From assembly GCF_049060185.1 (NCBI RefSeq), contig NZ_JBMEQO010000002.1: a DNA stretch of 64,000 nt. The stretch is one strand, 5' to 3'. The notes below the pieces were generated by a model. That model searched no databases and was not told the DNA's origin. It was given only the letters and a program-made list of their open reading frames with translations. Both the position numbers and the translations under genes were made by a program. The DNA comes from Nannocystis pusilla (lineage in GTDB: Bacteria > Myxococcota_A > Polyangia > Nannocystales > Nannocystaceae). Of the stretch, positions 59,955-63,898 are shown piece after piece (the first letter of the stretch is position 1; each line of letters starts with the position of its first letter).

Positions 59955-60135
59955 CCGCTCAGGCGCGGCAGCTCGGCAGTCCTCCGGGACTGCCCCGCAC
60001 CGCTCAGCGCAGAAGCCGGCAGTCTTCCAGGACTGCCCGCGCACCGCTCAGGCGCGGAAGCTCGGCAGTCCTCCGGGCAGGCCTCGCACGCGCCGCTCAG
60101 GCGCGAAGCTCAGCAGTCCTTCGGGACAGGTGATG
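59955..60135. repeat. Array of four roughly 44-bp units, each with a perfect hairpin GGCAGTCC-TCCG-GGACTGCC, at the 3' end of the T6SS effector operon.
   Basis: ...gctcaggcgcggcagctcGGCAGTCCtccgGGACTGCCccgcac... repeated four times with small changes. Confidence 0.6.
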
Positions 60136-60992
60136 TGCCACCCCATGTCGCCGAGGAACTCGCGCCGCTCGGCGGCGGTGCAGGTCGGCACGAACGCTCG
60201 CAGCACCCGCGGGTCGTAGAAGCGGAAGTAGACCTTCTCGCGGTCGAGCTCGACCATGAGGAACTTGCGCAGGTGGCGGCGCACGGCCTCGAACTCGCGG
60301 CCGTCGGGCACCGACAGGAAGATCGCCCAGCCACCGTCGCCGTCGCGCCGGGCGTCGTCGGTGTGCCAGCCCTCGACCACCAGATCGCCCAGCAGCTCCG
60401 GGTGCGGCGGCCCGAGCTCGACCAGGTACGGCGCGGTCTCGGCGATCGCGTCGCCCTGCCAGCCGTCGAACAGCGAGCGGTGGCGGGCCGGCGACTCGCG
60501 CAGGAGCACGCGCACCCGATCGTCGCGCGACGCGTCGGCGACCGCGAACAGCCGGCCCGGCAGCGCCCGTAGGGCCGCGATCGCCGGCGCGGCCGCGGCC
60601 ACCATCTCCGGCGTCGGCGGCGGATCGGGCCGCGTGTGGCGCTCGATCGCCAGCGCCAGGTCGGACGCGCCGGCGCGCACCCAGCCGCCGTGGCCGCTCC
60701 TGCCCTCGCGCATCGGCTGTCCGTCGAGACATGTCCGTTCGGTCACCAGCGCCTGCACCGCCGCGACCCGTCCGTCCCACTCGATCTGCAGGTGGATCGG
60801 CGCCAGCGCCCCGTCGTGCGCCAGGCACAGGCCGGCCGCCGCGTCGCGCCCGACCGTGATCGCCCCGCCCGCGGCGAGCACCGCCTTCTTGCCCTGCTCC
60901 GGCCCCCACAGCACCTCGACGACCAGCCGCGGCGCGGGTCCACCGGGGCCGGGCGGTCCGTCGTGAGAACTCGTGGCAGGGCTCGCGCTCAT
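60048..60992 (-). CDS. T6SS effector adaptor/chaperone: N-terminal FHA-like domain fused to a DUF4123 domain. The 3' end reads into the hairpin array; the true stop may be near 60110.
   Basis: FHA-like LVVEVLWGPEQGKKAVLAAGGAITVGRDAAAGLCLAHDGALAPIHLQIEWDG; DUF4123 LFAVADASRDDRVRVLLRESPARHRSLFDGWQGDAIAETAPYLVELGPP...WAIFLSVPDGREFEAVRRHLRKFLMVELDREKVYFRFYDPRVLRAFVP. The start ATG overlaps an upstream stop (ATGA). Confidence 0.6.
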   Translation of the reverse strand: MSASPATSSHDGPPGPGGPAPRLVVEVLWGPEQGKKAVLAAGGAITVGRDAAAGLCLAHDGALAPIHLQIEWDGRVAAVQALVTERTCLDGQPMREGRSGHGGWVRAGASDLALAIERHTRPDPPPTPEMVAAAAPAIAALRALPGRLFAVADASRDDRVRVLLRESPARHRSLFDGWQGDAIAETAPYLVELGPPHPELLGDLVVEGWHTDDARRDGDGGWAIFLSVPDGREFEAVRRHLRKFLMVELDREKVYFRFYDPRVLRAFVPTCTAAERREFLGDMGWHITCPEGLLSFAPERRVRGLPGGLPSFRA

Positions 60993-61872
60993 GGCGAAGG
61001 CGGATGGGCCGGCGGCCAGGCCGGAGTTCGGTCTCCTCGTCGAGGAACTCGGGCTCGTCGATCTCGACGCCGGCGCGGTAGCGGATGTCGTCCCACGCAA
61101 GCTGCCAGCGGGTCGGCACCTCGCCGTAGACGTAGTCGGTGCGCGCGGCGATCGGCGGGTTCTCCGGGTCGCCGGGGTAGCCCTCGGAGTCGACGCGCTG
61201 GATCTCGACCGTCAGCTTGGGCGCCGGCACGCCCTCGACCAGGTAGTTCGGGCAGCCGTTCGGCACGTCGATCGGCACCCACACCCCGGTGACCGGCACG
61301 ACCTCGTCCGGGTCGACGACGACGCCGTCGGCCGGCGGCATCGGCTGGAGGTGGGCGTGCGGCGGCGCCGGGCGCTGCAGGGCCATGAGCGTGTGCGACC
61401 ACCTGGCCTCGGCGGTGCGCTGCATCTGCGCCGCCATCACGACCGCCTTCTCGGCCCACGCGAACAGGCCGACGCTCGGCCGCTCGCCGTAGTTGTAGCC
61501 GAACTTGTCCCAGCGCATGCCGCCGTCGAAGCGGTGGCCGAGCAGCTCGGCGAGGAAGCCGGCCTGGATCAGCGCGTCGTAGGCCCGCGTCTTCTGGTTG
61601 CCGAGCAACAGGCCCGGCACCTGCTCGAGCGCCGCCAGCGGCGGATAGACCGTCTGCAGCGCCTTGCGGGCGAACTGGGTGTGGTCGGGCCCCGACTTGC
61701 GGGCCCACGCGTCGAAGCCGGCGCTGAACTTCTGCACGAGCTCGGTGCAGCGCTTGACGTAGGTCAGCGACGAGTATCGGCGCAGGCGATAGAACACCTG
61801 CGCGAGGGTGGTGGCGTCGATAGCGAGCTCGGCCGGCGTGAACGGCCGGACGGTGGTCTGGAGCTCCGTCAC
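60990..61872 (-). CDS. Candidate immunity protein for the upstream effector (about 290 aa). The GTG start overlaps the effector stop (GTGA); the C-terminus is reached via a frameshift that creates an ATGA overlap with the adaptor gene.
   Basis: VTELQTTVRPFTPAELAIDATTLAQVFYRLRRYSSLTYVKRCTELVQKFSAGFDAWARKSGPDHTQFARKALQTVYPPLAALEQVPGLLLGNQKTRAYDALIQAGFLAELLGHRFDGGMRWDKFGYNYGERPSVGLFAWAEK... (frame of ORF 60097..63231). Confidence 0.45.
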
Positions 61873-63275
61873 TGTTGCCTCTGCCGCCTCTCCTCGGCCT
61901 GCGAGCCGCGGACCGCCGCGCCCGTGACGCGCGTGACCGCGGTGGATTCGCCGACCCGCTCGGCGCGCTCGGCGTGCCCGAGGAGGATGGCACGGGTCTG
62001 CTCGTTCGGCACGTTCACGCCCATGTGATCGCGCCAGCCGGTCGGGTGCAGCGGCAGCGCCTCGACGTGGCTCAGCGCCCACGCGTTGCTCGGGTGGCGC
62101 AGGTCGATCAGCAGCTGCTGCGCGCCGCCGTTCAGCACCTGCCCGTAGGTCGCCGTCTTCGCCGCGTCCGTCTCGACCTGGCTGGCGACCTTGCCCTGCC
62201 ACACGTAGAGCGTCATGTTCGGCGGGATCTCGAACTCGATGTAGTGGCCGTCGCTGTTCCACGACTCGAGCACCGCGTAGTCCTCGCGCCACGCGCGGCC
62301 GCTGGCCGGCTTCTCCAGCGACCAGAAGGCGCCGGCGCGGCCGTCGGCGTTCTCGATCACGCGGTAGATCTTCCGCGGGTGCCGCAGCGCGACCGCCTGC
62401 AGGTTGCCGCTGAAGGTGCGGATGTTGCGGTACGGGTTGTGCGACGGGTTGTGGAAGCCGCCCTGGCGCAGGTCGGGCCACGGGATGCGGTGGCGGTAGT
62501 TGGCGATCGTCGACGGCGGGAACGGCAGATCGGCCTGACTCGGCAGCCGGCGCTCGCGCAACAGGCCGCGCTCGAGCTCCCGCGTCTCGGCGCGCAGGCT
62601 CGACGGGATCTCGTGGTAGGTCCCGGCGTAGATGTGGCGCTGGACCGTGTGCAGCCACTGGTTCAGGTCGCGCACCGCCTGCGGGATCATGCGGTCGCCG
62701 AGCGCCAGCAGCTCTTGCATCGCCGCTCGTAGCTGGCGCAGGCGCTCGGACATGCTGTTCGGCAGGACCCACCGCCCGCGGCGCAGGATGGCGTCGACCG
62801 TGGTGGTGACGCGTCCGACCAGCTGACGGAAGTGGCGCTGCAGCTCGGCGGTGTAGCGCGACAGGTCGAGCTCGCGGATGAAGCGGACCGCGTTGCCGTT
62901 GCCGAGCCGGTTGAGCAGCTCGATCGCCTCGCGCAGCACCGGCGCAGCGTCGGCGGCGTTGCGACCGACCCGCGCGAGCAGCCGGCCGACGCCCTTGATC
63001 GCGCCGCCCGCCACCGGGATCAGCGCGAACAGGCAGATCGCCAGCTCGACCCACTGCATGGTCTCCTGGCGCCGCTCGGGGTGATCGGCGAGGCGGATCA
63101 CCACCGCCAGCAGGTCGCGCACCGCGGTGACGTCGCCGACCACGGGGATCATGCCGATGATCGCGTCGACGATGATCTGGCTGATCGACTGCTGCTCGTT
63201 GAACCCGCCGCGGACGAGGCCCCAGATCCACTCACCGACATCGGTGATGGCGCGCATGTACTCGCCGCCGCTCAT
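61869..63275 (-). CDS. Putative T6SS effector (468 aa): N-terminal region with a predicted membrane helix (GMIPVVGDV...ELAICLFALIPVAGGAIKG) and a C-terminal roughly 250-aa domain of unrecognised family (candidate toxin).
   Basis: MSGGEYMRAITDVGEWIWGLVRGGFNEQQSISQIIVDAIIGMIPVVGDVTAVRDL...; the start ATG overlaps the PAAR stop (ATGA). C-terminal ...YRHRIPWPDLRQGGFHNPSHNPYRNIRTF...DGHYIEFEIPPNMTLYVWQGKVASQ.... Confidence 0.6.
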   Translation of the reverse strand: MSGGEYMRAITDVGEWIWGLVRGGFNEQQSISQIIVDAIIGMIPVVGDVTAVRDLLAVVIRLADHPERRQETMQWVELAICLFALIPVAGGAIKGVGRLLARVGRNAADAAPVLREAIELLNRLGNGNAVRFIRELDLSRYTAELQRHFRQLVGRVTTTVDAILRRGRWVLPNSMSERLRQLRAAMQELLALGDRMIPQAVRDLNQWLHTVQRHIYAGTYHEIPSSLRAETRELERGLLRERRLPSQADLPFPPSTIANYRHRIPWPDLRQGGFHNPSHNPYRNIRTFSGNLQAVALRHPRKIYRVIENADGRAGAFWSLEKPASGRAWREDYAVLESWNSDGHYIEFEIPPNMTLYVWQGKVASQVETDAAKTATYGQVLNGGAQQLLIDLRHPSNAWALSHVEALPLHPTGWRDHMGVNVPNEQTRAILLGHAERAERVGESTAVTRVTGAAVRGSQAEERRQRQQ

Positions 63276-63898
63276 CGCTGCTGTCCCTCGCCGGTGACGG
63301 CGTCGATCAGCGCGTCGGCGTCGCTGTCGGAGAATTCTTCCTTGAAGGTCGGGTTCGGGGTCTGCTCTTTGCGCTCCCAGGTGCGCACGTCGGGCCCGTA
63401 GCGGACGCGGGCCCGCTCGGGCGGGACGCCCTCGATGCGGGCCTGGCCGTTGGCGTCGAGCTTGCCCTTGAGGATCGTGCCGTCGCGCAGCTCGACCTCG
63501 TACTCGGCCTCCTGCACCGGATCGTCGTCGTGGTAGCGGTGGTCGAGGATCAGCGTGGTGTTGCGCTGCTTCTCGCACTCCTCGCAGAACGGCTTGTCGG
63601 TGCGCAGCGCCTCGACCTGGGCCGACGAGCCGATGATCACGGTCGGGCAGCCGACGACGATCGTGCCGCCGTGGGTGGTCGGGTCGCCGAGGCGCGCGGC
63701 CGGCTTGTTGCCGATGATCACCGAAGGCTCGCCGCGGGCGACGCTGTCGGGGCCGGTCGCGCACACCAGCTTGTCGCCCTCGCGCGCGGCCGGCATCATG
63801 CCGATGAGCACCGAGGTCTCGCCGACGACCACCGGGCCGCCGACGTGGGTCGGCACCGGGCACACGTGCATGTCAGTGATGCGGGCTGCGGGCGGCAT
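63272..63898 (-). CDS. PAAR-domain protein (T6SS spike tip) with a C-terminal extension.
   Basis: AAGGA RBS. MPPAARITDMHVCPVPTHVGGPVVVGETSVLIGMMPAAREGDKLVCATGPDSVARGEPSVIIGNKPAARLGDPTTHGGTIVVGCPTVIIG carries three PAAR-type repeats (prePAAR-like AARxxDxH at the N-terminus). Confidence 0.75.
   Translation of the reverse strand: MPPAARITDMHVCPVPTHVGGPVVVGETSVLIGMMPAAREGDKLVCATGPDSVARGEPSVIIGNKPAARLGDPTTHGGTIVVGCPTVIIGSSAQVEALRTDKPFCEECEKQRNTTLILDHRYHDDDPVQEAEYEVELRDGTILKGKLDANGQARIEGVPPERARVRYGPDVRTWERKEQTPNPTFKEEFSDSDADALIDAVTGEGQQR

Follow-up and report, generated by a model that had tools for sequence, protein, structure and literature searches.

Introduction

The described systems closest to the locus reported here are the NAD(P)+ glycohydrolase (NADase) effectors of type VI secretion systems (T6SSs). 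Tse6 (Tne1) of Pseudomonas aeruginosa, with its immunity protein Tsi6 (PDB 4ZV0 and 4ZV4), and Tne2 of Pseudomonas protegens, with Tni2 (PDB 6B12), are specialised effectors fused to PAAR, which have Eag (DUF1795) chaperones and a prePAAR motif. Tne3 (Rhs1-CT(Db10)), Tne4 (Rhs1-CT(1036)) and Tne5 are C-terminal domains of Rhs proteins. Here we describe an effector cassette at one end of a 64,000-nt stretch of Nannocystis pusilla DNA (contig NZ_JBMEQO010000002.1; the whole stretch is called the window throughout). Its effector is a separate cargo protein encoded together with an unsplit PAAR protein and a DUF4123 chaperone; it has no detectable sequence similarity to Tne2 or Tse6, and its delivery domains are other than those of the Rhs proteins.

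Three further systems bear on the locus. The cassette resembles Tap-1/TEC (VasW)/TseL of Vibrio cholerae and Tla1/Tle1 in having a DUF4123 domain and a vgrG–effector operon, and differs from them in its adaptor, which has an FHA domain at the N-terminus and whose gene follows that of the immunity protein. In enteroaggregative Escherichia coli (EAEC), the transthyretin-like (TTR) domain of VgrG1 binds the cargo Tle1 (reviewed in PMC10433429). Finally, the toxin family Ntox48 was described with the conserved residues R,[RK],Q,Q and a predicted BECR (barnase–EndoU–colicin E5/D–RelE) RNase fold, and the families Imm71 and Imm72, which are often fused, as its immunity (Zhang et al., 2012; PMC3482391).

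On balance, the Nannocystis locus is best explained as an auxiliary T6SS operon of the order vgrG–paar(TTR)–effector–immunity–adaptor, in which the cargo effector is a predicted NADase.

Organization of the cassette

Four consecutive genes and the 3' end of a fifth lie on the minus strand of the window, in a region of 70–78% GC. In the direction of reading these are the 3' end of vgrG (63912–64000, running past the window edge), the gene for a PAAR-TTR spike-tip protein of 208 amino acids (aa; 63272–63898), the gene for a 468-aa cargo effector (61869–63275; ATG at 63275, stop at 61869), an immunity gene (60989–61872; GTG at 61872, ancestral stop at 60991–60989) and the gene for a 314-aa FHA-DUF4123 adaptor/chaperone (60048–60992; ATG at 60992, stop at 60048). 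All four complete genes were found where a first-pass annotation, made from the sequence alone, had placed them. Two of the overlapping start and stop codons that it described, ATGA between paar and the effector gene (63275–63272) and GTGA between the effector and immunity genes (61872–61869), are also as reported. The third, an ATGA between the immunity and adaptor genes, is present at 60992–60989, but its TGA is out of the immunity reading frame (see below).

The gene directly upstream, proposed at first as possibly vgrG, is indeed the 3' end of vgrG. The last 28 aa of the truncated product, up to its stop at 63912, match the C-terminus of the 705-aa VgrG of N. punicea (domains Phage_GPD, Phage_base_V and Gp5_trimer_C) at 26 of 28 positions, and this stretch has 96.7% nucleotide identity to the related locus L008. 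At the nucleotide level, the genomes nearest to the window are those of Nannocystis sp. RBIL2 and N. pusilla Na p29 (about 96.5% identity). The orphan status suggested for the cassette holds: the 20 largest coding-looking open reading frames (ORFs) of the window include no T6SS core gene, nor did one turn up in the 7 kb or so that precede vgrG in N. punicea, and the locus is therefore regarded as an auxiliary vgrG island. Promoter-like sites were not found within the cassette, nor terminator-like sites on its coding strand; the only terminator-like site detected lies on the opposite strand.

Synteny was counted over 80 related genome loci, which were scanned with iterated hidden Markov models (HMMs). 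In 75 of the 80, the gene for the effector homolog is immediately followed by one for an Imm71/Imm72-type homolog, which bears out the proposal of a T6SS effector–immunity pair. The Enterobacter homolog comes directly after vgrG in a core TssF/TssG/SciN/TssE cluster and is followed by an Imm71/Imm72 gene, and another homolog (P0082) is fused to Hcp. Through genetic linkage, or through fusions in relatives, the effector is thus tied to vgrG, hcp and paar, as a cargo effector should be. The architecture of the cassette is standard, and the identities of its genes, its two overlapping start/stop pairs and its synteny across the 80 loci are direct observations.

The C-terminal domain of the effector

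Homologs of the effector (n = 223) were found in Nannocystis, Fibrobacterota, Acidobacteriota, Burkholderia, Yersinia and Enterobacter; all are labelled 'hypothetical' and none has a Pfam domain over the toxin part. The window effector gave no match to the Pfam and NCBIfam toxin families, no Pfam toxin family was found in 46 members, and a profile of the toxin domain searched against all PDB sequences returned nothing at E ≤ 10.

Structure models were more informative. The full-length AlphaFold2 model (predicted local distance difference test, pLDDT, 83.8) has an all-helical N-domain (aa 1–220) and a compact α/β C-domain (aa 236–432, pLDDT >95), which corresponds to the C-terminal toxin domain at 61980–62570. 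Foldseek searches with the full-length model were flooded by helical bundles, and Tse6 alone stood out; the C-domain was therefore modelled alone (pLDDT 88.2, predicted template modelling score 0.82). With this model, chains of Tne2, Tse6 and Rhs1-CT only were matched at a probability of at least 0.95. Every strong fold match is an NAD(P)+ glycohydrolase, and T6SS effectors account for three of them; the model shares the fold of the TNT/Tne-type NAD(P)+ glycohydrolase toxins. By sequence, the domain lies outside the Pfam families TNT and Ntox46 and outside Tne1–3. The C-terminal part had been put forward as a candidate novel toxin domain; it is new as a sequence family, but its predicted fold is a known one, that of the TNT/Tne-type NADases.

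Four residues of the C-domain are invariant (R305, W318, W329 and R330) and four near-invariant (W359, Q366, Q379 and Q387); no Glu is invariant. Conserved Arg, aromatic and Gln residues without an invariant catalytic Glu agree with the TNT-type pattern of aromatics and Gln (PMC10539506), and R305, W318, W329 and a conserved Gln (Q387 or Q366) are candidate active-site residues. The conserved pattern (R, WR, Q, Q) differs from those of the Rhs1-CT toxins Tne3 and Tne4, of Tne5, which uses Lys and Glu, and of TNT and AfNADase.

The toxin-domain profile matched 723 clusters in a library clustered at 50% identity. A toxin core of about 110 residues forms the C-terminus of other architectures, for example a VgrG-PAAR-toxin protein (P0290) encoded next to tssC (TssC), and thus behaves as a polymorphic toxin module. 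The toxin belongs to a widespread, uncharacterised sequence family for which these models confidently predict an NADase fold. The effector itself is most likely a cargo NADase, of a sequence family apart from Pfam and from the families with solved structures (Tne1–3, AfNADase and TNT).

As far as the published description of Ntox48 allows, this toxin family is probably the same. When the published signature R,[RK],Q,Q is used for comparison, it is matched by R305, R330, Q366 or Q379, and Q387; the phyletic ranges overlap (beta- and gamma-proteobacteria, acidobacteria), and the probable assignment follows from these two points together. The immunity family, an Imm71-Imm72 fusion, is also the same. 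The family is unlike Ntox48 as described in that the searches with the C-domain model do not support a BECR fold.

The immunity gene and its frameshift

The immunity protein matched Imm72 over aa 182–274 (35.8 bits, cut-off 25, E = 8.8e-9), with the signature WxDxRY present as WDDIRY, and Imm71 over aa 24–122 below the cut-off (23.5 bits, cut-off 27, E = 6.5e-5). No signal peptide, hydrophobic N-terminus or transmembrane segment was found in it, as would be expected if the toxin acts in the cytoplasm. Against PDB sequences the immunity protein gave chance-level matches only. Because it has no relative in the PDB, the Imm71-Imm72 protein shows no sequence relationship to Tsi6, Tni2 or RhsI1. 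In the small ORFs downstream of two distant toxin-core proteins, Imm71 and Imm72 were undetectable.

As sequenced, the immunity ORF has no stop before 60097; it would encode 591 aa and overlaps the whole adaptor gene. Its own stop is out of frame because one C is missing at 61023–61024 (CC instead of CCC). Where the window has CTCCGG, the sequence is CTCCCGG in L002, L008 and L011 (from Nannocystis sp. RBIL2, N. pusilla and a Logan contig) and CTGCCGC in N. punicea (L010). The shift begins at codon 284, 3' of both Imm domains. In translated relatives (L001 and L002) the immunity protein has 294–296 aa, ends in ...EETELP(A/L)WPPAHPPSP followed by the stop, and its gene overlaps the adaptor start by 4 nt; L008 and L011 have the same junction, including the ATGA. 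Programmed frameshifting at 61023 was considered and rejected, as no slippery heptamer is evident when the sequence is read and all relatives are in frame.

The missing C must reflect an assembly error in the homopolymer or else a mutation of recent date. If the frameshift is real, this copy of the cassette would be degenerating, with a 591-aa read-through product and with translation of the adaptor uncoupled from that of the immunity gene. The C is absent from the window alone when compared with the four relatives, and no slippery heptamer is evident at the site. Loss of one base in a run of C in DNA of 73% GC is, however, also a typical assembly error, the remainder of the cassette is undamaged, with an identity of about 96.5% to its relatives, and both the Imm71 and the Imm72 domain lie upstream of the shift. 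A toxin kept without its immunity would, moreover, harm its own cell. We take degeneration of this copy to be a serious possibility, though one that falls somewhat short of an even chance.

Two or more strong immunity copies were found in 16 of the 80 loci. Arrays of two to three tandem Imm72 paralogs lie downstream of some effector homologs (for example L005, 8298–11374, and L006, 7787–10449), three such paralogs follow the Hcp-fused homolog P0082, and second copies of the toxin core were found at some loci (L017, L020, L038 and L052). Imm72 arrays together with extra toxin cores are the typical pattern of accumulating orphan immunity and toxin cassettes.

The PAAR protein and its putative transthyretin-like module

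The PAAR and DUF4123 proteins had been named from the sequence alone, and both pass the Pfam thresholds. The PAAR protein matched PF05488 over aa 16–81 (79.8 bits, cut-off 27, E = 1.7e-22) and reached only 36.5 bits against the NCBIfam equivalog domain model (cut-off 124). Three PAAR motifs are present (PPAAR, MPAAR and KPAAR), and neither a transmembrane domain nor a toxin domain was found on the protein. The prePAAR-like N-terminus that had been attributed to it does not stand. The prePAAR motif is AARxxDxxxH, parted from a split PAAR by one or two transmembrane regions and co-occurring with Eag chaperones (Ahmad et al., 2020). Here the N-terminus (MPPAARITDMH) enters the PAAR domain directly, with no transmembrane segment and with the spacing AARxxDxH, and no DUF1795 (Eag) chaperone gene was found within the cassette, where the chaperone-like gene is that of the DUF4123 protein. 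By its sequence, the N-terminus is simply the opening segment normal for an unsplit PAAR domain, the segment from which prePAAR derives.

The C-terminal half of the PAAR protein (about aa 100–207) shares homology with an extension that longer effector homologs have at their N-terminus. It contains a putative effector dock of transthyretin-like (prealbumin/CarboxypepD_reg-like) type (63299–63556). In BLASTP searches this TTR module matched P0048 at 1e-22 and the Hcp-fused P0082 at 3e-24; in the latter, the module joins the Hcp domain to the effector body. In 77 of the 80 loci the module precedes the effector N-domain by about 300 nt, on varied carriers: the C-terminus of VgrG (36 loci), a fusion to the effector (14), short separate ORFs (10) and PAAR (5, all in Nannocystis); in 12 loci the carrier is interrupted by a contig end. 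Some metagenome-assembled genomes, of Polyangiaceae and others (L013, L015, L029, L035 and L045), have the TTR-like module as a stand-alone ORF of 121–141 aa, likewise about 300 nt ahead of the effector.

Matches of the module to described families were weak (CarboxypepD_reg in 10 of 23 module members, best E = 5.4e-4; SpaA in 5 of 23), as were those to PDB entries (collagen-adhesin B repeats, 3e-3; a C-terminal fragment of P. aeruginosa VgrG2b, 0.11). On these matches, the module is tentatively assigned the transthyretin-like fold and viewed as a docking module of the EAEC VgrG1/Tle1 kind. What it has in common with EAEC VgrG1 (DUF2345-TTR) with Tle1, and with PAAR-TTR proteins, is that a spike protein ends in a module of transthyretin-like type, which here would dock the cargo encoded beside it. 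The module is unlike EAEC VgrG1/Tle1 in that it is also found fused to the effector or to Hcp, or as short stand-alone ORFs, and in that its TTR/prealbumin assignment comes from weak matches.

The FHA-DUF4123 adaptor

The adaptor gene is the last of the vgrG operon, and its product is 95% identical to an N. pusilla protein (P0121). Its DUF4123 domain (aa 148–277; 60162–60551) matched PF13503 with 88.5 bits (cut-off 25.8, E = 5e-25); the match to the NCBIfam model Tla1 was weak (2.1e-7). The N-terminal domain (about aa 20–117; 60642–60935), at first called FHA-like, gave no Pfam FHA match at E ≤ 1 when the window adaptor was searched alone. At the level of the family it is a true FHA domain: a profile of 57 adaptor homologs matched the FHA domain of Mycobacterium tuberculosis FhaA (E = 8.7e-16), and also GarA, Rad53 and EmbR. 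The combination with DUF4123 had been called unusual. It is rare in that FHA, although the commonest extra domain of DUF4123 proteins, occurs in 1.1% of them, but it is already on record (PMC7714669), and FHA-type Pfam records (PF00498 or PF16697) are present in 37 of 107 adaptor homolog clusters, mostly from Myxococcota.

The phosphothreonine-binding residues of the FHA domain are poorly kept. In the window the Arg is retained, Ala takes the place of the Ser of SxxH (LAPIH), and Arg that of the Asn of NG; across the 57 members, the Ser position is Ala in 36 and the Asn position Gly or Glu in 44. The Arg (of GR) is replaced by Ser in nine members, including P0121 and P0126, and is thus lost even in the closest relative. 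Because of these replacements, phospho-dependent binding by the FHA domain is unlikely in this clade. A DUF4123 gene was found beside the effector in the retrieved flanks of 7 of the 80 loci, with FHA in Nannocystis only. At two loci (L013 and L029), the DUF4123 gene has no FHA part and precedes the effector instead of following it.

The N-terminal domain of the effector

The first-pass annotation had placed a membrane helix in the N-domain, and two hydrophobic segments (aa 31–60 and 72–97) were confirmed there by the Kyte-Doolittle 19-residue mean (>1.6). Together they form a conserved hydrophobic helix pair resembling a DUF4112 hairpin (aa 31–97; 62985–63185); a sub-threshold DUF4112-like match over these helices is the only Pfam or NCBIfam match of the window effector. 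Within the domain, G47 is invariant, D37, D48, R53 and D54 are near-invariant, and the same helix region carries a GMIPxVGD motif. A homolog search with the N-domain only returned just 19 mostly fragmentary proteins, none of which showed the N-domain joined to other toxins.

Proposed mode of action and alternative readings

In the mechanism that we propose, the PAAR protein would cap the VgrG spike, and its transthyretin-like C-terminal module would dock the effector. The FHA-DUF4123 protein would act as a non-secreted chaperone that shields the hydrophobic N-domain of the effector and loads the effector on the spike. After firing, the DUF4112-like hairpin may enter the inner membrane of the target, so that the C-domain reaches the cytoplasm, as proposed for Tse6. 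The C-domain, with the predicted fold of Tne2, Tse6 and TNT, would then hydrolyse NAD+ and NADP+ and growth would stop. In the producer and its kin, the cytoplasmic Imm71-Imm72 protein would bind and block the toxin.

Several observations weigh against the operon with an NADase effector as set out here. The predicted NADase function rests on modelled structure, sequence similarity to any NADase being undetectable in Pfam and in the PDB profile search, and the conserved residues were matched to the known catalytic Gln and aromatics by pattern. The immunity gene is frameshifted in the window, so that this particular copy may be impaired. A DUF4123 gene is absent from the retrieved flanks of 73 of the 80 loci, and the adaptor role is therefore not general; the phosphothreonine-binding Ser and Asn of the FHA domain are not conserved in the window or in most of the family. 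Two further points concern the chemistry of the toxin: the fold of the ADP-ribosyltransferase superfamily supports transferase chemistry too, and an RNase fold (BECR) was predicted for Ntox48 (Zhang et al., 2012; PMC3482391).

The first of these two points would make the C-domain an ADP-ribosyltransferase, with a protein or a nucleic acid as its target, and not just a hydrolase of NAD(P)+. In the structure search with the C-domain model, none of the ADP-ribosyltransferases, RES toxins and KptA scored above 4.0, and we consider a transferase unlikely. Still less probable is a toxin in which the N-terminal membrane-helix domain is the harmful part, forming pores or disrupting membranes, and the C-domain has a targeting or accessory role. 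Such a toxin would account for the strong conservation of the two hydrophobic helices and for the sub-threshold DUF4112-like match over them in 45 of 46 members, and helical pore and channel proteins were among the Foldseek matches of the full-length model, with poor scores. Those helical matches, however, had TM-scores (template modelling scores) of 0.10–0.14, the immunity protein is soluble, with neither transmembrane segment nor signal peptide, and the C-domain core occurs by itself in other polymorphic toxins, where it forms the very C-terminal end, as in the VgrG-PAAR-toxin protein P0290. A BECR-fold RNase, which the literature would favour by tying Imm71/Imm72 to Ntox48 with its 'predicted BECR fold', is very improbable.

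For the NADase reading as a whole, a broader claim can be made, to which we give an even chance. The effector would represent a sixth T6SS NAD(P)+ glycohydrolase family, unrelated in sequence to those compared, with about 720 clusters (in Myxococcota, Fibrobacterota, Acidobacteriota and beta- and gamma-proteobacteria), identical with Ntox48 and equipped with its own delivery kit. This kit would consist of a membrane hairpin of DUF4112-like type and a mobile TTR dock, carried now by VgrG, now by PAAR, Hcp or the effector; the Nannocystis version would have one more protein contact, made by the degenerate FHA domain of its DUF4123 chaperone. If confirmed, this would correct the published prediction of Ntox48 as an RNase, in both fold and function, and would add a new Tne family. 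The predicted depletion of NAD offers a concrete and cheaply testable function for a large family of 'hypothetical' T6SS effectors, with members in Enterobacter, Yersinia, Burkholderia and Pantoea as well as in many environmental phyla, and for Imm71/Imm72. The small TTR-like module just upstream of the effector, whatever its spike carrier, is a simple genomic marker for this class of cargo, and its varied carriers are a natural experiment on the docking of cargo to VgrG, PAAR or Hcp.

Repeats at the adaptor 3' end and other features of the window

The adaptor gene ends within a tandem array of hairpin repeats of about 45 nt (59944–60130), which was delimited with a tandem repeat finder, pattern searches and protein alignment. 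The array has four copies with a perfect hairpin (GGCAGTCC-TCCG-GGACTGCC), and the last adaptor codons (CPEGLLSF...RA; 60051–60130) lie inside it. One extra in-frame 45-nt unit adds 15 aa (APERRVRGLPGGLPSF) to the window adaptor; the adaptors of N. pusilla, N. punicea and N. radixulma lack this insertion. The region at 59306–60130 (78–82% GC), the spacer between the adaptor gene and the neighbouring histidine-kinase gene, contains two tandem arrays, the hairpin array being the second; the first consists of 71-nt units (2.8 copies, 95% identical; 59392–59604). These spacer repeats are local to one spot in the window, and BLAST alignments to close relatives break up there.

The HAMP/HATPase_c histidine kinase gene (58214–59305, minus strand) is syntenic with N. 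punicea and is not T6SS-related. Other neighbours unrelated to T6SS encode a trypsin-like protease with a Big_7 domain (48076–49572, minus strand) and a DUF4388 protein (1048–2538, minus strand). An ORF on the plus strand (30566–33439; 957 aa; GC at third codon positions 0.95) encodes a protein resembling the major vault protein (MVP), with matches to the Pfam families MVP_shoulder (E = 7.9e-9) and Vault_3; in a phmmer search, its residues 368–895 aligned with residues 276–808 of rat MVP (E = 1.3e-16). A near full-length MVP homolog in a myxobacterium is worth a separate study. Cys-rich DUF4215 repeats were found in three tandem paralogs of about 400 aa (36305–40087, minus strand) and in a 756-aa protein (51610–53880, minus strand), and one of the DUF4215-repeat proteins also has a Fibrinogen_C-like segment.

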